A DNA stretch of 64,000 nt from Candidatus Sulfotelmatobacter sp. (GCA_035503455.1 DATJTK010000074.1:3536-67535), one strand, 5' to 3'. Shown: positions 1,543 to 61,491, counted from the first letter of the stretch. Notes: generated from the letters alone by a model not told the origin. A program made the numbers and translations.

Positions 1543-1573
1543 AACATCGAACATCGAACATCGAACGCCGAAG
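1543..1573 (+). repeat. CATCGAA heptamer-tract element, solo arm
   Basis: AACATCGAACATCGAACATCGAACGCCGAAG, 19 nt after the kinase stop codon. The lead-in TGCAGGAAC resembles the lead-in at 13795. Confidence 0.8.
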
Positions 1574-1626
1574 TTAAATTTTTATGTTAAATTCAGGCAG
1601 AGGTGAAGGTCCAGGTCGCGAAGCGG

Positions 1627-9989: not shown

Positions 9990-10032
9990 AAACATCGAAC
10001 ATCGAACCTCGAACATACCCAACATCGAATGC
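9990..10032 (+). repeat. CATCGAA heptamer-tract element, solo arm
   Basis: AAACATCGAACATCGAACCTCGAACATACCCAACATCGAATGC, lying between divergent genes. Confidence 0.8.
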
Positions 10033-10062
10033 TGAGTGAAAGGTGACGGCGTGGCCGTTCAG

Positions 10063-10671
10063 ATGGATAAGTGCTTTTTTTCCGATAACAAGGTCAGTAT
10101 CCTGTCGTCCAATTTGAAAATTCTTGTCGCCATCACCGGGGCCAGCGGCGCTCTTTATGCGCAACGGCTGCTGGACAATTTGAATCCGCGCGAGCACGAA
10201 ATCCACGCCGTGCAGAGCAATTACGCTCAACAGGTCATCTCCGAGGAACTGGCCGGCGGCTTGAAACTTCCCGACGGCGTGAAAATGCATGGGATCAAGA
10301 GCATGAACGCGCCGTTTGCCAGCGGCTCAAATCCACCCGACGCCATGGTGGTCATTCCCTGCACGATGGGGACAATGGGCCGCATCGCCCACGGTTACAG
10401 TGAAGATGTTCTTCTGCGCGCGGCGGACGTGGTGTTAAAAGAAAAGAAAAGATTGATTCTCGTTCCCCGTGAAACGCCCCTCAGCCTGGTCCACGTCAAG
10501 AACATGGAATTGCTGCTGCTTACCGGCGCGGTGATTTTGCCGGCCAACCCGGTTTTTTACTCGGGGGCGAAGACGATTGTTGAACTGGCCGATACTGTCG
10601 TGGCCCGGGTGCTCGACCACCTAGGCATCAAAAACAATCTGGCGCCGCGGTGGGCGGAGGAAAACGAATAA
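10063..10671 (+). CDS. ubiX: Flavin prenyltransferase UbiX (MqnL-like in a futalosine context)
   Basis: KILVAITGASGALYAQRLL, MVVIPCTMGTMGRIAHG and LILVPRETPLS are UbiX/Pad1 family motifs. The ATG at 10063 was chosen. Confidence 0.88.
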   Translation: MDKCFFSDNKVSILSSNLKILVAITGASGALYAQRLLDNLNPREHEIHAVQSNYAQQVISEELAGGLKLPDGVKMHGIKSMNAPFASGSNPPDAMVVIPCTMGTMGRIAHGYSEDVLLRAADVVLKEKKRLILVPRETPLSLVHVKNMELLLLTGAVILPANPVFYSGAKTIVELADTVVARVLDHLGIKNNLAPRWAEENE

Positions 10672-10686
10672 AGGCATGGCAAATCA

Positions 10687-11589
10687 TTGGAAATGATTTT
10701 AACGATACAAAAATGGGGAAGTTTCGTGCGTTTTTCGCACACGGTTTTTGCGCTGCCGTTCGCGCTGGCGGCCATGATGGTCGCCGCCCGCGCCAACCGC
10801 GGCTGGCCCGGCTGGAAAGCGTTCCTGCTCATTCTTGCGGCAATGGTTTCCGCGCGGACGTGCGCCATGGCATTTAACCGGATTGTGGACCGCAAATTCG
10901 ATGCGCTCAATCCGCGCACCAAAAACCGCCATTTGCCGTCAGGCCAAATTTCCCTGGCCAGTGCCATTGCGCTTTGCGCGATTTCCGCGGCTGGCCTGAT
11001 TGCGGCCTCCTGGTTCCTCAATCCGATTTGTTTCTATTTGTCGCCGGTCGCGCTGGTTGTCATTTGTTTTTATTCGCTCACGAAGCGGTTTACGGATTAT
11101 ACCCATGTTTTTCTGGGCGTTTCATTGGCTTTGGCTCCCATCGGCGCGTGGCTGGCCGTCAAGGGCGCGAACATCTCCGTGGACGAAATCCTCGAAATGA
11201 GCGTTTTGGCGCTTGCTGTGGTCCTGTGGTTGGTGGGTTTCGACATCATTTATGCGCTGCAGGACCATGAATTCGATAAAGCGCACGGGCTGCATTCGCT
11301 GGTTGTCGCATGGGGACAGAGCAACGCGCTGGCGGCGGCGTTTCTGGCACACATGCTCATGTGCGGCCTGCTTTTCGCGTTTGGATTGCTTTGCCGGTTC
11401 CACCTGGCATATCTCATCGGCTGGTTCATCATTGTGGGTTGCCTTTCGCTGGAACACTGGATTGCGCGTCGGCGCAGTTTAAATTGGATTAATGTCGCTT
11501 TTTTCCGGCTCAACGCGCTGGTCAGCGCCGTGTTTTTTGTGGTTGTTGCCGCGGAAGTAGTTTTTCGCGGACCGTTACTGTTTCGGTAA
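10687..11589 (+). CDS. UbiA-family aromatic prenyltransferase (4-hydroxybenzoate polyprenyltransferase-related; MqnP-like)
   Basis: 300 aa, about 8 TM segments. NRIVDRKFDALNPRTKNRHLPSG is the aspartate-rich UbiA motif, with a second motif YALQDHEFD. Confidence 0.85.
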   Translation: MEMILTIQKWGSFVRFSHTVFALPFALAAMMVAARANRGWPGWKAFLLILAAMVSARTCAMAFNRIVDRKFDALNPRTKNRHLPSGQISLASAIALCAISAAGLIAASWFLNPICFYLSPVALVVICFYSLTKRFTDYTHVFLGVSLALAPIGAWLAVKGANISVDEILEMSVLALAVVLWLVGFDIIYALQDHEFDKAHGLHSLVVAWGQSNALAAAFLAHMLMCGLLFAFGLLCRFHLAYLIGWFIIVGCLSLEHWIARRRSLNWINVAFFRLNALVSAVFFVVVAAEVVFRGPLLFR

Positions 11590-11650
11590 CAGAAAGCAGA
11601 AAAACCATTGACTATTAAAGGTTTTGAATGGGTTGGCATAAATCCAGCTA

Positions 11651-12409
11651 TTGGATTTGCCCATGGACAGTTTCTCACAATTTTACGATTCAGGATTGCA
11701 GCCGGGAGCATCGAAACAGCCCGGGGGTAATGCGGCCCGCAAGCTCGCCACATTCATTCTGCACGAATTCATTGAAGGACTGGTCGCGCTTCGCACGCAG
11801 GATCTCATCGCCAATCTCCTGGAACTCAATGCGCTGGAAAAATTTATCGCAAAGAAAAGCCCTTGTGAAGTAGGCGCGGTACTGAAAGAAAGCATTGAAC
11901 ATCACAAATTGCCTGCCGCCCGCAAGCAGATTGTTTTTCTCAGTGGAATTTCGGGCGGCCTTTGGGCGCAAGCCAGCCAGTCCGTCCTCAGGCGAGTCTT
12001 CGACAACGTTATTTCAAACGCCGTAAAATATTCCCCGGCAAATTCCACCATCCAGGTGCATGCGTTGGCTGAAGACGCCAATATTGTTGTCAATGTTCGC
12101 GACCAGGGGGTAGGCATCAATGAGGAAGGGCGGCAAAAGCTATTTCAGAAATTCGCCCGACTCGTTGCCGGTCCGGTGGGCGGGCCCGGTTCCGCAGTTG
12201 TTCGCCAGGCCATTGTCAAAAAGCTGGCCGAGACATTATCCGGTTCCGTTCGCTGGCGCAGCGCCCTGGGCTCCGGTTCGACATTCACCTTGAAGCTGCC
12301 GGTCTCGACGAAGCCGGCGGAGGCTGTGGACTTGCCGGATATCACGATGCTTGAACGAAATATCGTGGAGTTGGCCGAGCCGATGCCCCGGGTCGCGTCC
12401 AGAAATTGA
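11651..12409 (+). CDS. Soluble histidine-kinase-like ATPase core protein (no sensor or TM region)
   Basis: N-box FDNVISNAVKYS, G1 RDQGVGI, and a G2-like GSGSTFTLKLP. Only a degenerate H-box (ILHEFIEGLVALR). TTG start in the track; the first ATG is at 11663. Confidence 0.65.
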   Translation: MDLPMDSFSQFYDSGLQPGASKQPGGNAARKLATFILHEFIEGLVALRTQDLIANLLELNALEKFIAKKSPCEVGAVLKESIEHHKLPAARKQIVFLSGISGGLWAQASQSVLRRVFDNVISNAVKYSPANSTIQVHALAEDANIVVNVRDQGVGINEEGRQKLFQKFARLVAGPVGGPGSAVVRQAIVKKLAETLSGSVRWRSALGSGSTFTLKLPVSTKPAEAVDLPDITMLERNIVELAEPMPRVASRN

Positions 12410-12471
12410 ACGCTGGCTGTTTGTCTTCGATCCTTATTCCTTAAGTTCGTACGATAGATCTCCCCTGGGCT

Positions 12472-12566
12472 TTCGATGTTCAGCATGTTCGAGGTTGGAT
12501 GTTCGATGTTTGGAATTCATTCACCGACCCTGAAACATTCGAACATCGAACACCCAACATCGAATG
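12472..12566. repeat. CATCGAA-tract hairpin, both arms with a 21-nt loop (the ORF-less form)
   Basis: Left arm 12472-12511 (TTCGATGTTCAGCATGTTCGAGGTTGGATGTTCGATGTTT) and right arm 12533-12566 (AAACATTCGAACATCGAACACCCAACATCGAATG) are imperfect reverse complements. Confidence 0.8.
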
Positions 12567-12616
12567 GTCAGACTTGTAAAATGCTTTGCGCAACGGCCTC
12601 TTTGCGTTAAATATAG

Positions 12617-13792
12617 ATGGTGAATTTTTTCGTACAACGGAGCCAATTACGGGACATTTACGACAAGGTTGTCGCCGGCGAACGCATCTCGGAATCCGAC
12701 GCATTGCGGTTATTTGAATCCAGGGACATCAATGCCATTGGCGCCATCGCGGATTTCGTCCGCCAGCGCAAAGTCGGCAACCGCGCCAGTTACATCGTCA
12801 ACCGTTACATCAACTATTCCAATTATTGCATCCTTTCCTGCCAGTTTTGTTCGTTTGCCCGCAAGAAACGCGACGCGGATGGTTTTCAGTTCACGACTGA
12901 AGAAATCGTCGAAAAGGCCCGGGAAGCGCTCAAAATCGGCATTACGGAACTTCACATCGTGGGCGGACTGCATCCGTCGCTGCCGTTTAGTTATTACACG
13001 GACATGCTCCGGGCGCTCAAGAACCTTGATTCGCGCCTGCAATTAAAATGCTTTACCGCCATCGAAATTCTTCATCTGGCGTGGCTTGCCAAAAAAACCG
13101 TCGAGCAAACATTGATTGAATTGAAGGACGCCGGTCTCGAATCGCTGACGGGCGGCGGCGCGGAAATCTTTCGCAAGGAAGTCCGCGGCGCCATCGCGCG
13201 GGGCAAGGAATCCGCGGAAGAGTATTTGGACGTGCACCGCATCTGGCATCGCCTTGGCGGGCGCAGCACCTGCACCATGCTTTACGGCCACGTGGAGAGC
13301 CTGGCCGACCGCGTGGACCATCTCCGGCAGTTGCGCGCCTTGCAGGATGAAACGCGGGGTTTTGTCGGCTTCGTGCCGCTCGCCTACCAGCCCAAAGACA
13401 ATGATATTCCGGTGGATCATCCGCCGACGGGTTTTGATTCACTCCGGACCGTCGCCATCAGCCGCATTTACCTGGACAACTTCGACCATATTACCGCCTA
13501 TTGGGTTGGGCTGGGATTGAAGCTGGCGCAGGTCGCATTGAGTTACGGCGCGGACGATTTGCATGGAACCATCGTGGAGGAACATATTTTCCACATGGCG
13601 GGCGCCGAATCACCCCAGCTTCAAACCGAGGCGGACATGCTCAAGGCGATCCGCGAAGCGGGCAGAACACCCGTTCAGCGCAATACGTTCTACGAGCCCA
13701 TCAAGATTCTTGAAGAGATGAATCCTGCCCGCGACAGCGAAGCGGCGGAGGGTCACTCCAAAGTTTTGGAGGAAAATCTGGCGACAGCATGA
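12617..13792 (+). CDS. Radical SAM menaquinone (futalosine pathway) enzyme, MqnE/MqnC (CofH-like) family
   Basis: CILSCQFCSF radical-SAM cysteine triad in the NRYINYSNYC context. HIVGGLHP and TCTMLYGHVE are CofH/Mqn family-like. 391 aa. Confidence 0.85.
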   Translation: MVNFFVQRSQLRDIYDKVVAGERISESDALRLFESRDINAIGAIADFVRQRKVGNRASYIVNRYINYSNYCILSCQFCSFARKKRDADGFQFTTEEIVEKAREALKIGITELHIVGGLHPSLPFSYYTDMLRALKNLDSRLQLKCFTAIEILHLAWLAKKTVEQTLIELKDAGLESLTGGGAEIFRKEVRGAIARGKESAEEYLDVHRIWHRLGGRSTCTMLYGHVESLADRVDHLRQLRALQDETRGFVGFVPLAYQPKDNDIPVDHPPTGFDSLRTVAISRIYLDNFDHITAYWVGLGLKLAQVALSYGADDLHGTIVEEHIFHMAGAESPQLQTEADMLKAIREAGRTPVQRNTFYEPIKILEEMNPARDSEAAEGHSKVLEENLATA

Positions 13793-13803
13793 ATGCAGAA
13801 CCC

Positions 13804-14380
13804 GGAAAACATCGAACATCGAACATCGAACGCTGAACATCGAATGGAAAAGACCTGCATTTGACCATGGAAACTGAATACGGACGATCCGATAAAGACA
13901 GCAGCGCATGGGTTTTGAACGATGGAAATGAAAACGGGCGTAAGTATAACCTGGAAGAGCGACTACTGGAATTTGCAACTGCGGTAATTAATTTATCTGA
14001 AAAGCTTCCTTCATCGCGCGCCGGGAATCACGTTGCGGGACAAATTCTTCGGTCCGGCACATCACCTTATCCAAATCATGGCGAGGCCGAATCAGCCGAG
14101 TCGCGCGAAGATTTCATTCACAAATTGAAGGTCTGCCTGAAAGAGTTGCGCGAGACGCGCCGCTGGGCGCGGTTGATCGCCCGCATGAATTGGGCAAATA
14201 GTGACCCGACGCTACGCTTCATCTTAGGTGAGTCAGATGAGTTAATTCGTATTTTCTCGGCCAGCATTAAAACAGCCCACGAAAACACCCTTAAGCAAAA
14301 ACGTTCCAATAGCGGTGGCTAACAGTTTGACGCTCTGCATTCGATGTTCAGCGTTCGATGTTCGATGTTCGATGTTTTCC
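13804..14380. mobile_element. Hairpin-bracketed cassette: perfect 43-bp inverted repeats enclosing a four-helix-bundle gene
   Basis: 13804-13846 is the exact reverse complement of 14338-14380 (43/43). Mobility is hypothetical. Confidence 0.4.
13867..14322 (+). CDS. Four-helix-bundle protein (23S rRNA intervening-sequence protein / Avd-like family, PF05635-type)
   Basis: YNLEERLLEFATAVINLSEKLP...AGNHVAGQILRSGTSPYPNHGEA....REDFIHKLKVCLKELRETRRWARLI matches my memory of the family pattern. Confidence 0.85.
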   Translation: METEYGRSDKDSSAWVLNDGNENGRKYNLEERLLEFATAVINLSEKLPSSRAGNHVAGQILRSGTSPYPNHGEAESAESREDFIHKLKVCLKELRETRRWARLIARMNWANSDPTLRFILGESDELIRIFSASIKTAHENTLKQKRSNSGG

Positions 14381-14391
14381 GAGTTCCGCAG

Positions 14392-15579
14392 TCAAAGCCG
14401 TTCCGGCTGCTGCATCAGGCTCGCAATGCGCTGGAGCAGGCGGCCGGCAGCTCCGCCGTCGAGGACGCGATGGTCGAAACTGAGAGTCAAACATGCTTCG
14501 ATGACCGGGACAAACTGGCCTTTTTGCTCATTCCAATGCGGAGCAGGCAGTCCGGCGCCCATGCCCAGCACCAGCGTTTGTTCGGGTAATGGAATGGGGG
14601 TTGCCCAGGCGAGGCCAAATGTGCCGAAATTTGTGACGGTGGCGATCGAGCCGCCGGTGGCATCGGCTGGCAGTTTTCTTTGGCGGGCCAATTCCACCAA
14701 TTCATTGTAGCGTTCCGTCAAATCGCGAAGGCCTTTTTGGTCGGCATGGCGGATGACAGGAACGAGCACGCCGTCCTCGGCTTCGACGGCAAATCCCACG
14801 TCGATGGAACCCGGATGAAAAATTTTATTGCCGACGAGCCGGCCCGCGGGGGCTGAATTTTCCGAAAGGGCCATGGCGAGCGCGCGCAACGCGTAAAGGG
14901 CAGGGCCGGGTTTGGGCGCCAAAGTTTTTCTGTGCGCGAGCACCGCATCCAATTGCACTGGCAGGCCAACGGTCGCGAGCGGCCGCGTCCAACTGCGGCG
15001 CATGGCATCGGCTACGGCGACGCGCATGGATGAGGCGCCGCTCATCTTGTGCTTTTCAAGGGCGGTGATGAATTTCTCGAAATCTTCAATGGTGACCCTG
15101 CCCGCGGCTCCGCTGCCGGCCACTCCCGCCAAATCGGCCGCGCTCAGGCCGAGTTCCGTCATCCGCGCTTTAAGGCGCGGGGAAAGATAACTCGCGCCGG
15201 CGGCATTTGCGGGAACGGGCAGGCCGCGCACGGTCGGCTGCACGCGAGTGCGCCCATTGGGTCCTGCCTTTGCGGTCCGCTCAGTATCGGGAGTTTTTGA
15301 CGGGGCGGCGGTGTCCAGGCCAAGGCGGGTGGCTTCCTCCTGCGTTGCCTCGATATAACCGAGCACGGCATCCACGGCGTAACTCTCATTCAACTGCGCG
15401 GTAAACGTTTCAATCCTGCCGGCGCAAGGCGACGTCACGGTCATCGTGGCCTTGTTCGTTTCAACTTCGATGATGTCCTGGTCAGCCGACACGTTGTCGC
15501 CGGGCTTGACCAGAAAGGAGATAATGTTTGCCTCTGCTATGGACTCGCCGAACTGCGGCATGATGATGGAAACGCGCAT
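14392..15579 (-). CDS. Dihydrolipoamide acyltransferase, E2 component of a 2-oxoacid dehydrogenase complex
   Basis: Lipoyl domain MPQFGESIAEANI...VETNKATMTV, a peripheral subunit-binding domain, and a catalytic C-terminus LSFDHRVLDG. Start set at the ATG at 15579 (MRVSIIMPQ), 12 nt after the E1beta stop. Confidence 0.9.
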   Translation of the reverse strand: MRVSIIMPQFGESIAEANIISFLVKPGDNVSADQDIIEVETNKATMTVTSPCAGRIETFTAQLNESYAVDAVLGYIEATQEEATRLGLDTAAPSKTPDTERTAKAGPNGRTRVQPTVRGLPVPANAAGASYLSPRLKARMTELGLSAADLAGVAGSGAAGRVTIEDFEKFITALEKHKMSGASSMRVAVADAMRRSWTRPLATVGLPVQLDAVLAHRKTLAPKPGPALYALRALAMALSENSAPAGRLVGNKIFHPGSIDVGFAVEAEDGVLVPVIRHADQKGLRDLTERYNELVELARQRKLPADATGGSIATVTNFGTFGLAWATPIPLPEQTLVLGMGAGLPAPHWNEQKGQFVPVIEACLTLSFDHRVLDGGAAGRLLQRIASLMQQPERL

Positions 15580-21579: not shown

Positions 21580-21594
21580 CGAGGATTTCCGTTT

Positions 21595-21627
21595 ATTCGA
21601 TGTTTGGCGTTCGATGTTCGATGTTCC
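21595..21627 (-). repeat. CATCGAA heptamer-tract element, solo arm (reverse orientation)
   Basis: ATTCGATGTTTGGCGTTCGATGTTCGATGTTCC, between the divergent hsp20 and oxidoreductase genes. Confidence 0.8.
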
Positions 21628-41911: not shown

Positions 41912-41952
41912 AAAACATCGAACATCGAACATCGAACACTGAACATCGAATG
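41912..41952 (+). repeat. CATCGAA heptamer-tract element, solo arm
   Basis: AAAACATCGAACATCGAACATCGAACACTGAACATCGAATG, 4 nt after the LysR stop and 14 nt before the convergent gene's stop. Confidence 0.85.
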
Positions 41953-53988: not shown

Positions 53989-54065
53989 TGGTGCACGCAT
54001 CAGGAGTTGAACCTGAAACCTTCTGATCCGTAGTCAGATGCTCTATCCAATTGAGCTATGCGTGC
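53989..54065 (-). tRNA. tRNA-Arg (anticodon ACG), CCA encoded
   Basis: Minus-strand sequence GCACGCA-TA-GCTC-AATTGGATA-GAGC-A-TCTGA-CTACGGA-TCAGA-AGGTT-TCAGG-TTCAACT-CCTGA-TGCGTGC-A-CCA folds as a full cloverleaf. Confidence 0.95.
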
Positions 54066-54192: not shown

Positions 54193-54232
54193 GAAACATC
54201 GAACATCGAACGTCGAACGCTGAACATCGAAT
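54193..54232 (+). repeat. CATCGAA heptamer-tract element, solo arm
   Basis: GAAACATCGAACATCGAACGTCGAACGCTGAACATCGAATG. Confidence 0.85.
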
Positions 54233-54243
54233 GCCCTCGTCTG

Positions 54244-60099: not shown

Positions 60100-60140
60100 C
60101 ATTCGATGTTCAGCGTTCGATGTTGAATGTTCGATGTTCT
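60100..60140 (-). repeat. CATCGAA heptamer-tract element, solo arm (reverse orientation)
   Basis: CATTCGATGTTCAGCGTTCGATGTTGAATGTTCGATGTTC. Confidence 0.85.
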
Positions 60141-60213
60141 CCGCTTGCTCACGCTCTTACGCCCTTGCCTGCCACCCTCCATCCTCCATCTTCGATCCGC
60201 CATCTCCCATCTC

Positions 60214-61116
60214 CTATCTTCCATCTCCCGCCGGCTTAGCCCTGGAGATGATCGCCTGAACCGCCGGGTGCGATCGCCGTCGCTCGGCGGTAATGGCGTA
60301 GAATTGTTGCCGGCAGCCTTTGGCTTTTCCGATGGTGTGCAGACTCAGTTGCGTGACCGATTCTTTGGCGACCAGCGTGGGGATGGCCATGAAACCCAGA
60401 CCATGTGACGCAAGCGTTCTCACAAAGGCCGGATCTTCGAGTTCGCCCACCAACCGGGGCCGCACACCGACGTCGTGAAACCACTGTTCCAGGGAACGCC
60501 GCAAACCGCTGTTCGACATCGGCAACAGCGCGGGCGCTCCATCCAGGGATTTGGGAAAGCCGCGTCGCAATTTTGCGGCCAGGCGCCGCTCGGCGCAAAA
60601 TACAATGCCGCTTTCTTCGAGCAAATGGTTAAAGACGTTGCCGGACACGCCGCTGGCCGCCGGCTGATCGGCCAGCACCACGTCGAGCCGATGCGCCGCG
60701 AGGTCCGTGAGCATGTCGGACACGTTGGTTTCCCAGCAAGCCACCTGCACCGCCTGCGGCAGGCGAAAGATGGGCTCGATAATGCGATAGGCCACCAGCT
60801 TGGGCAGCGCATCGGCCACGCCCAGGTGCACGCGCAGCGGGCGCAGGGTGGGACGCTGCTTGATCGTGCTGATCAAATCCTGGCCCAGGGAGAAAATCTC
60901 CTCCGCGTAGCTTAATGCTTCCTGGCCCGTGTCCGTCAGCACGAGATGGCGTCCGGTTCGCCGAAACAGTTTCTCGGCCAGCGCCTCTTCGAGGTCCGCA
61001 ATTTGGGCGCTGATGGTCGGCTGGGACACGTGCAACTTTTTCGCCGCCTTCCGCAAGCCGCCTTCTTTGGCGACCATCCAGAAATATCGCAAATGATGAT
61101 AGTTGAGGAAATCCAT
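60214..61116 (-). CDS. LysR-family transcriptional regulator (NhaR-like subfamily)
   Basis: LNYHHLRYFWMVAKEGGLRKAAKKLHVSQPTISAQIADLEEALAEKLFRR resembles the NhaR-type N-terminus. Confidence 0.9.
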   Translation of the reverse strand: MDFLNYHHLRYFWMVAKEGGLRKAAKKLHVSQPTISAQIADLEEALAEKLFRRTGRHLVLTDTGQEALSYAEEIFSLGQDLISTIKQRPTLRPLRVHLGVADALPKLVAYRIIEPIFRLPQAVQVACWETNVSDMLTDLAAHRLDVVLADQPAASGVSGNVFNHLLEESGIVFCAERRLAAKLRRGFPKSLDGAPALLPMSNSGLRRSLEQWFHDVGVRPRLVGELEDPAFVRTLASHGLGFMAIPTLVAKESVTQLSLHTIGKAKGCRQQFYAITAERRRSHPAVQAIISRAKPAGDGR

Positions 61117-61437: not shown

Positions 61438-61460
61438 ACGTTCATTCGGCGGATTTGGAA

Positions 61461-61491
61461 ATATCGAACGCCGAACGCCGAACATCGAATT
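61461..61491 (+). repeat. Degenerate CATCGAA-tract arm
   Basis: ATATCGAACGCCGAACGCCGAACATCGAAT followed by TTTTTT. Confidence 0.6.

Follow-up and report, generated by a model that had tools for sequence, protein, structure and literature searches.

This analysis concerns a gene-bearing unit in a 64,000-nucleotide (nt) stretch of DNA from Candidatus Sulfotelmatobacter sp. (GCA_035503455.1 DATJTK010000074.1:3536-67535), referred to here as the window. At the junction of two convergent protein-coding genes, mqnE and the gene for a 2-oxoacid dehydrogenase E2, a gene for a four-helix-bundle (4HB) protein has an array of about five tandem heptamers on either side, the two arrays being inverted relative to each other. 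The explanation that we favor, with moderate confidence, is that this is a genetic unit of the kind found as an intervening sequence (IVS) in 23S rRNA, lodged here outside rRNA, with arms that would form a stem for RNase III and heptamers that would be bound by the cognate 4HB protein. The unit is real, conserved and, on occasion, mobile, and it would pass to descendants, duplicate, invert and change place as a whole.

A repeat search delimited the arms at 13790-13846 and 14338-14394; they are 57 nt each, complementary at 54/57 positions (95%) and 491 nt apart. The cores, 13804-13846 and 14338-14380, are exact reverse complements when read base by base (43/43), and the three mismatches lie in the outer 14 nt of each arm, where 11/14 positions are paired, exactly as the preliminary description of this DNA had stated. 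That description also placed the stop codons of both neighbors at the base of the stem, and the outermost paired triplets are indeed the TGA of the plus-strand gene (13790-13792) and the TGA of the minus-strand gene (14392-14394). Its account of the interior, 20 nt, a 151-codon open reading frame (ORF) and 15 nt, was equally accurate; the ORF runs from an ATG at 13867 to a stop codon at 14320-14322, and an alternative TTG start at 13861 gives 153 codons. Both neighbors had been rightly named, the left one as MqnE (TIGR03700, 462 bits, cut-off 434) and the right one as the E2 protein, encoded on the minus strand and convergent with mqnE. What had been missed was the inner structure of the arms. 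After its outer 14 nt, the 5′ arm reads GGAAA, three copies of AACATCG, one AACGCTG, one AACATCG and AATG, i.e., it contains five tandem heptamers. RNA folding of 13780-14404 gave −235 kcal/mol (z = −6.95), and the long stem closed the whole unit. An identical arrangement, including an identical 4HB gene call, is present on an independent 3.2-kb JGI contig (L001), and it is therefore not an assembly artefact of a single record.

A consensus scan detected no promoter-like site within the unit and no terminator-like site at it. No T run, which would give a U tract, follows either arm, and the arms are rich in A and C, not in G+C; the earlier label of terminator-like hairpins thus does not suit them. 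Between 9000 and 16000, no Rfam family, rRNA included, was matched at E ≤ 1. Neither the 57-nt nor the 43-nt repeat is flanked by direct repeats, so there is no target-site duplication. No reverse transcriptase gene adjoins the 4HB gene, whose neighbors are MqnE and E2, and 12000-15500 holds neither a template/variable repeat pair nor long direct repeats; a diversity-generating retroelement (DGR) was rejected on these two grounds. Within the 5′ arm, an in-frame TGA (13834-13836) arises from the AACGCTG unit, and translation in the window must therefore start at 13861 or 13867, not upstream of the arm. In seven related loci (L002, L010, L013, L042, L044, L062 and L068), the 4HB frame is open through the entire 5′ array, with an in-frame ATG upstream (e.g., MKNGKHRTSNIEHRTLNE...), and the heptamer units of these relatives are stop-free in all frames on both strands. 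In them the array may be translated as an N-terminal extension.

The assignment of the ORF to the four-helix-bundle family, made earlier by pattern, was supported by profile searches. The window ORF matched TIGR02436 with E = 6e-21 and 74.7 bits (cut-off 24) over profile positions 3-108 of 109, and PF05635 with E = 7e-11 and 42.8 bits (cut-off 33.8). Its protein also matched PDB 2RLD (E = 8e-16), and the 4HB profile matched PDB 2GSC (XCC0516; 6e-19), both entries being deposited with 5 chains. PMC4990558, with reference to Lin et al. 2006, describes the 4HB protein as a homopentamer. By homology to the pentamers 2RLD and 2GSC, we infer that the window protein is a four-helix bundle that assembles as a homopentamer. 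Residues G58-Q-I-L-R62-S-G-T-S66-P-Y-P-N70-H-G-E73 fit the pattern GxxxRxxxSxxxNxxE, which carries one extra residue between G and R relative to the published family motif GxxRxxxSxxxNxxE (PMC3936711). Q59, E73, and E96 are invariant in the homologue alignment. The dN/dS of the gene against its orthologues is 0.04-0.08, with saturated synonymous sites, and by this substitution pattern the gene is functional and under strong purifying selection. Searches with phmmer and jackhmmer through all six-frame ORFs found no further 4HB paralogue in the window. The family is large, with at least 7784 relatives of XCC0516 at E ≤ 1e-10.

The association of the gene with its arms was analyzed in a sample with one genome per species, in which relatives of the window protein were found at 80 loci. 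About 70 of these belong to Verrucomicrobiota (Limisphaerales/Pedosphaera-like metagenome-assembled genomes; 61-83% identity), and the ten others are more distant (36-50% identity), nine of them with Bacteroidota names. At 77/80 loci, an inverted repeat with a score of at least 16 (median 23.5) encloses the ORF, and its arms are tandem heptamer arrays. When 430 random ORFs of similar size from the same loci were scored in the same way, only 1/430 reached this value (median 9, maximum 18), and the unit of the window scored well above all of them. The preliminary description had asked whether 4HB genes and inverted repeats of CATCGAA tracts recur together, and these figures answer that they do. 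The period is characteristic too: 192 arrays of period 7 were detected in 1.26 Mb, as compared with 0-41 for periods 5, 6, and 8-11, and 111/192 lie within 200 nt of a 4HB ORF. The repeat unit differs between lineages, being AACATCG, AACATCC, or AACATTC in Verrucomicrobiota, AAGACTC in Chitinophagaceae, AATTCAC/AATTGAC in Bacteroidaceae, and AATTACG or the octamers GATGTGGG and AAAATGTG elsewhere. On a neighbor-joining tree of the proteins, AACATCG, AACATCC, and AACATTC map onto protein clades. In genomes with two 4HB paralogues, each is flanked by a different unit, and 7/9 distant paralogues in the homologous loci have arms of their own unit (CCATCCT, GCATCAC, AGTCCAA, AAAGTTG, AAATGAA/AAATTAA, and an 11-mer).

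The arms are also regular in size and direction. Exactly five units were counted in 43/70 left arms and 51/70 right arms, and all Verrucomicrobiota loci share one polarity, with the (AACATYS)n arm upstream on the coding strand. Given that the protein is under purifying selection while its synonymous sites are saturated, the persistence of the arms is not inertia. The arms of the window match at 43/43 positions, as compared with 27-40 of 43 in 33 other loci whose two arms both have five units, which suggests a recent homogenization of the former. In those 33 loci, a variant unit, AACGCCC, stands fifth in the 5′ arm and fourth in the 3′ arm, an offset that allows the stems to pair in several registers. 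Units of another length replace the heptamers in some places: octamers in Gemmatirosa (L085; GAGGGCAG) and in L079 and L081 (the two given above), and a unit of about 11 nt in L080 (3903-4393).

Each arm of the window unit is one copy of a dispersed, roughly 40-nt heptamer-tract element, whose other copies keep the internal order of the variant units. Allowing up to 3 mismatches, the 16-mer AACATCGAACATCGAA has 34 matches in the window, as compared with 0.72 expected, and the tally of the element is 7 solos, 1 ORF-less doublet and 1 gene-bearing doublet (Table 1). The ORF-less hairpin at 12472-12566 had been singled out before as a second version of the structure; it is real, with paired segments 12488-12510 and 12542-12564 that are 91% complementary and a minimum free energy of −41 kcal/mol as RNA (z = −4.2), although it is not the only other copy, seven solos existing besides. 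Its layout is a (CGATGTT)-type arm at about 12472-12510, a loop of about 24-31 nt, and an (AACATCG)-type arm at 12535-12566, a polarity opposite to that of the gene-bearing unit. The same three forms coexist in relatives, with ORF-less short-loop doublets in L012, L013, and L019. All copies in the window are intergenic; where genes could be assigned, a start or stop codon is 2-71 nt away. The 5/5 assignable solos are sense to their gene, a small sample; the heptamer repeats of Xanthomonas show no strong orientation bias (PMC4692102). All but one of the period-7 arrays of the window are built from the unit found in the arms of its own 4HB gene.

Table 1. Positions of the gene-bearing unit, of the other copies of the heptamer element, and of the empty ubiX|ubiA spacer in the window.
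Feature	Position	Strand	Remarks
5′ arm	13790..13846	+	outer 14 nt 13790-13803, including the mqnE stop; core 13804-13846
Spacer, 5′ arm to ATG, 20 nt	13847..13866	+	contains the alternative TTG 13861
4HB gene, 151 codons + stop	13867..14322	+	TIGR02436/PF05635
Spacer, stop codon to 3′ arm, 15 nt	14323..14337	+	
3′ arm	14338..14394	+	reverse complement of the 5′ arm, (CGATGTT)n on +; outer 14 nt include the E2 stop (14392-14394, gene on −)
ORF-less doublet	12472..12566		between upstream + strand ORF and mqnE
Solo, 4 units	1543..1575	+	15 nt past stop of + strand gene
Solo, 4-5 units	9991..10031	+	ends AACATCGAATG; 5 nt upstream of ubiX ORF
Solo, 4 units	21594..21625	−	between divergent genes; sense to − strand gene starting 21523
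Solo, 5 units	41914..41952	+	between convergent genes, 2 nt past stop of + strand gene
Solo, 5 units	54195..54234	+	130 nt from tRNA-Arg (ACG), 53989-54065, − strand
Solo, 5 units	60102..60138	−	71 nt past stop of − strand gene; adjoins array of second heptamer family
Degenerate solo	61460..61489	+	AATATCG, AACGCCG twice, AACATCG
Empty ancestral ubiX|ubiA spacer, 41 nt	10672..10712	+	no heptamers

Other families of arrays were also observed. A second, degenerate array, (CCATCCT/CCATCTC)n, occupies 60168-60229 in the window, 30 nt from the solo at 60102-60138 and near the 3′ end of a minus-strand ORF (60214-61116). The unit CCATCCT flanks a distant 4HB paralogue in L042 and L068, and the source genome may hold a second, cognate paralogue outside the window. 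In L010 (480-1080), a (GATTTAC)n family appears as a solo and as a doublet around a small Cys-rich (zinc-ribbon-like) ORF. Arrays of (GATTTAC)n also lie just upstream of ubiX in L010, L022, L033, L034, and L046, at the place of the AACATCG solo 9991-10031 of the window; different array families thus occupy the same site in different genomes.

Comparison of gene neighborhoods indicated how the window unit came to its present place. At 62 related loci, ubiX and ubiA have the unit between them, on their own strand, and its arms abut the ubiX stop and the ubiA start, as read in L002 and L010. The corresponding spacer of the window is empty, and the unit is found 3.1 kb downstream, after mqnE. In the tree, the window protein nests among the orthologues from the ubiX|ubiA site that share the AACATCG unit; with its own site empty, this means that the whole unit changed place, which agrees with the earlier suggestion of a traveling cassette. 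A metagenome scan with the E2 protein gave 80 E2 loci, of which two, both from close relatives, share the mqnE|E2 junction. In one of them (L091), both arms are present in degenerate form, and the loop consists of the last 37 codons of a 4HB gene in the opposite orientation. This state would match recombination between the inverted arms followed by deletion; alternatively, it may reflect an independent insertion in the opposite orientation. The other (L090) has a single AACATCG-type arm that abuts the E2 stop. Neither of the two relatives sharing the junction has a clean empty site, nor the hairpin-only site that the preliminary description had envisaged. Their states indicate that complete units decay into truncated copies and solos.

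The genes around these sites merit a brief account. Positions 10036-13792 of the window form a one-strand gene cluster with a ubiX homologue (10036-10671), a ubiA homologue (10687-11589), an ORF of 252 amino acids (11651-12409), and mqnE (12617-13792). This is probably a futalosine (menaquinone) pathway cluster, in which mqnE is the one gene confirmed by a profile (TIGR03700). Relatives either miss the ORF at 11651-12409 or carry other DNA, up to 7 kb of it, between ubiA and mqnE. In the window, a small palindrome, AAATCATT-GG-AAATGATTT, lies at 10681-10699 in the empty ubiX|ubiA spacer and may be a scar, a target or a product of chance.

To assess generality, the XCC0516 sequence (PDB 2GSC) was used in a tblastn search of plasmids, which gave 4HB genes in Cyanobacteria and Gemmatirosa, and eight loci were read. 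Inverted arrays of a lineage-specific unit flank the 4HB ORF in 6/8 of them: GGGTGTA in Calothrix (32/36), TAGGGAG in Nostoc edaphicum (33/34), where the unit lies between RNR genes, GGGTGTG in N. punctiforme (29/30), CTTCTGC in Stanieria (15/15), GGAGATA in Picosynechococcus (L087; 16/17), between cas10 and cmr3, and the octamer GAGGGCAG in Gemmatirosa (38/43). In Pseudanabaena (L088), long direct CTAAAAG/CCAAAAG arrays stand on both sides with an inverted pair further out, between cas6 and cas4. In Nostoc PCC 7120 a downstream array alone was observed, and an ISL3 transposase gene stands immediately upstream of the 4HB gene. Orthologues of XCC0516 in Xanthomonas and Pseudoxanthomonas (L170-L174) are located between accB and accC, co-directional with both, a position conserved across genera. 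They are flanked by inverted GGGAATC-type arrays, and more solo GGGAATC arrays are present in those 20-kb loci. GGGAATC is an unexplained genome-wide repeat of Xanthomonas, with 186 sites and 70 convergent pairs in X. campestris (PMC4692102). The lodging between accB and accC in Xanthomonadales parallels that between ubiX and ubiA in Limisphaerales, the unit being stable inside an essential operon in both. Judged by these arrangements, the gene-plus-repeat unit recurs in at least five bacterial phyla. Genes of the 23S_rRNA_IVP type have been reported in association with cas loci (PMC3936711; PMC10910872), and this association may reflect the intergenic insertion of a self-contained unit, not a function in CRISPR.

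On our preferred explanation, the unit would be transcribed by read-through, here from mqnE and, in relatives, inside the ubiX-ubiA or accB-accC operons. Transcription probably reads through the unit because it has no promoter-like or terminator-like site of its own and is placed tightly between host genes. In other genomes it sits inside operons that need read-through (ubiX|ubiA, accB|accC, cas10|cmr3, and cas6|cas4). In the transcript, the arms would pair as a 43-57-bp duplex that RNase III probably cuts, as was shown experimentally for rRNA-borne members of the family, e.g., in Coxiella (PMC4990558), and a perfect 43-bp duplex is a plausible substrate. As a consequence, the unit could sit between or inside essential transcripts harmlessly. 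The heptamers, in turn, probably serve the pentameric protein as cognate sites, with one for each subunit and five in each arm. It would bind the flanks of its own gene, for autoregulation or protection, as well as the dispersed solo and doublet copies, and the solos would arise at least partly from the decay of complete units. The RNase III step would account for the inverted symmetry, not for the periodicity; the binding step would account for the periodicity, the match of unit and clade, the number five, and the dispersed copies.

Several observations weigh against parts of this explanation. The arms are not universal in the family, being absent at two 4HB genes on phage scaffolds, the only two matches in the phage collection, and at two in L078. 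The period is not strictly 7, with octamers or an 11-mer in some lineages, and the arms do not always have about five units, with 8 and 5 per arm in Nostoc edaphicum and 15 and 10 in Pseudanabaena. The isoelectric points of the window protein (7.9) and of 2RLD (5.6) are both near neutral and lend no charge support to nucleic-acid binding. As L090 illustrates, a solo can be a relic, and solos thus need not be functional sites. The stems themselves gave no RNA-specific signal: mismatches in 79 stems, on the sense strand, were 75 of the G·U type and 101 of the A·C type (p = 0.06). Arms slid by one unit (7 nt) paired equally well (0.83-0.87 vs. 0.84 in register), and at variable positions the complementarity was 0.71 to the own partner arm, as compared with 0.63 to an arm from another locus. 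With this sliding and the weak excess for the own partner, the similarity of the arms could reflect a shared protein-binding unit or gene conversion, not selection for a stem. The argument from compensatory changes is weakened by the register sliding, and we do not claim covariation in support of the stem.

A less likely alternative is a DNA transposon-like element in which the heptamer arrays are terminal inverted repeats (TIRs), perhaps acting as single-strand hairpins as in IS200/IS605 or in the repetitive extragenic palindromes (REPs) and their REP-associated tyrosine transposases (RAYTs). The recognizing enzyme would be encoded elsewhere, or the 4HB protein would be an accessory; solos and doublets would be non-autonomous derivatives or footprints, and the RNA stem a by-product. 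The relocation, duplication, and inversion of the unit speak for this, as do the coexistence of its solo, doublet, and gene-bearing forms, the insertions at many unrelated intergenic sites, cas operons and the space between RNR genes included, and the lack of G·U bias in the stems. The same three forms are known for REPs, REPINs (inverted REP doublets), and RAYT-flanking REPs. Yet the window unit shows no target-site duplication and, apart from the ISL3 gene of Nostoc PCC 7120, no transposase-like gene adjoined any unit; nor do we know of any nuclease or recombinase activity in the 4HB fold. Moreover, the unit stayed at ubiX|ubiA in 62 loci while synonymous sites became saturated, and mobility must therefore be rare; it would also leave the purifying selection on the protein and the maintained count of five units unexplained. 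MITEs (miniature inverted-repeat transposable elements) and other TIR elements likewise share terminal inverted repeats, dispersed copies, and short ORF-less versions with the unit, which differs from them in its tandem-array arms and in its stability at one site; membership in that class was rejected for want of a target-site duplication.

It is also conceivable, though we consider it improbable, that the hairpins came first. Doublets such as 12472-12566 would then be host elements with their own function, e.g., stabilizers of mRNA ends or sites of another protein, and a small 4HB gene cassette would insert preferentially into their loops, as into hairpin loops of 23S rRNA, the arms being the target and not the cargo. 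This would suit the ORF-less doublets of the window and its relatives, the position of IVSs at the tips of rRNA helices (PMC4990558), and the outer 14 nt of the window stem, which are not common to the units of relatives and could belong to a pre-existing local hairpin. It accords poorly with an arm unit that follows the protein clade even in paralogues moved to a new site, with distant paralogues that each have their own unit, with the ubiX|ubiA site of the window, which retains no hairpin, with L090, where one arm and not an empty doublet is seen, and with the identical polarity in every Verrucomicrobiota locus. An ordinary bidirectional terminator or insulator hairpin with an ORF in its loop by chance is barely credible. 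It would fit the position between convergent mqnE and E2 with both stop codons in the stem, and was rejected on the missing U tract, the missing terminator-like site, the operon-internal positions, and the comparative data: in the 62 related loci and in Xanthomonadales the unit lies between co-directional operon genes, where termination would be harmful, and the ORF is bracketed far more often than control ORFs.

The closest known counterparts are the ORF-bearing IVSs of 23S rRNA, which occur in Leptospira, Coxiella burnetii, Brucella, and Haemophilus. They share with the unit the protein family (S23p/PF05635) and the position of the ORF in the loop of a long stem of terminal inverted repeats. 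This likeness, already drawn in the preliminary description, extends to the repeats: in the Coxiella IVS, tandem GACAGAT heptamers (2-3 plus one degenerate, in strain-variable number) adjoin the S23p ORF, between it and the base of a terminal stem of 28 bp, which RNase III cuts (PMC4990558). In contrast, the window unit lies between protein genes and not in helix 9, 25, or 45 of 23S rRNA, its protein is under purifying selection whereas the Coxiella ORF is decaying and probably untranslated, and its arms are recognizably five heptamers from a dispersed genomic family. The unit is evidently the same kind of element, yet it lacks the 23S rRNA location that defines the class. Avd, the DGR accessory protein (PDB 4DWL), is likewise a 4HB pentamer, classed with PF05635-like proteins (PMC10053308), and is reported to act together with structured RNA that borders its element (bioRxiv 10.1101/2023.10.23.563531). 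The 4HB sequence profile did not match Avd at E ≤ 0.001, and the window gene differs from it in having no adjoining reverse transcriptase or template/variable repeats. Avd is basic, unlike the near-neutral window protein.

The REPIN/RAYT system follows the same logic, with a short dispersed repeat that occurs as singlets and as hairpin-forming inverted doublets, and a gene flanked by inverted cognate repeats, as was found in the window, its relatives, and the Xanthomonas loci. RAYT is a low-copy, vertically inherited gene flanked by cognate REPs, repeat and gene co-varying. Here, the flanked gene encodes a 4HB protein and not a Y1/HUH transposase, and the repeat is a tandem heptamer array and not a palindromic REP. 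The trp RNA-binding attenuation protein (TRAP) is a ring homo-oligomer that binds as many tandem (G/U)AG RNA repeats as it has subunits. With a modal number of five heptamers in each arm and a pentameric protein, the present case would resemble it as a mechanistic analogy only, the fold being unrelated. The window element, intergenic 7-nt tandem units with several per site and at many sites, also has the features of the dispersed heptamer families (GGGAATC, PMC4692102; TAACTGA, PMC4679880; the cyanobacterial short tandemly repeated repetitive sequences, STRR), which are intergenic, scattered, 2-15 units long, often in convergent pairs, and unexplained in function. TAACTGA repeats occur in Beggiatoaceae, Cyanobacteria, and Bacteroidetes (PMC4679880), and in Xanthomonas the repeat GGGAATC is exactly the unit that flanks the XCC0516-type gene. 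The explanations offered in PMC4692102 and PMC4679880 are G-quadruplexes or translational control, and the texts of these two papers make no mention of 4HB, S23, or IVS proteins. In the literature that could be searched, which excludes subscription journals, the Coxiella IVS paper (PMC4990558) is the only one that links a 4HB gene to heptamers. Three features are undescribed in that searchable literature: that 4HB genes are systematically flanked by inverted sets of five heptamers, that these arms are identical with dispersed heptamer families, and that such units are present between protein-coding genes.

More than 30 years after the first description of the family in 1993, the function of 4HB/23S-IVS proteins outside DGRs is unexplained. 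The family is very large and tandem heptamers are an old bacterial puzzle, and the gene and the repeats may explain each other. We tentatively propose, as a possibility, that PF05635/TIGR02436 proteins are the partners of dispersed tandem heptamers (GGGAATC in Xanthomonas, the cyanobacterial arrays, CATCGAA tracts, and the repeats of ORF-bearing 23S IVSs), each clade binding its own heptamer with one subunit per unit. The analysis ties both puzzles into a testable prediction, namely that every 4HB protein binds the heptamer array flanking its own gene, for which Xanthomonas campestris accB-XCC0516-accC (with a solved structure and mapped GGGAATC sites), the 2RLD protein of Bacteroides thetaiotaomicron, and Nostoc are tractable models. 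A self-contained unit would explain the harmless presence of 4HB genes in operons, cas loci, and rRNA. If the proposal is true, this would be a protein-repeat system like REPIN-RAYT or TRAP in its logic, built on an unrelated, non-enzymatic fold, and the IVS of 23S rRNA would be one accidental landing site of the system, not its defining context.

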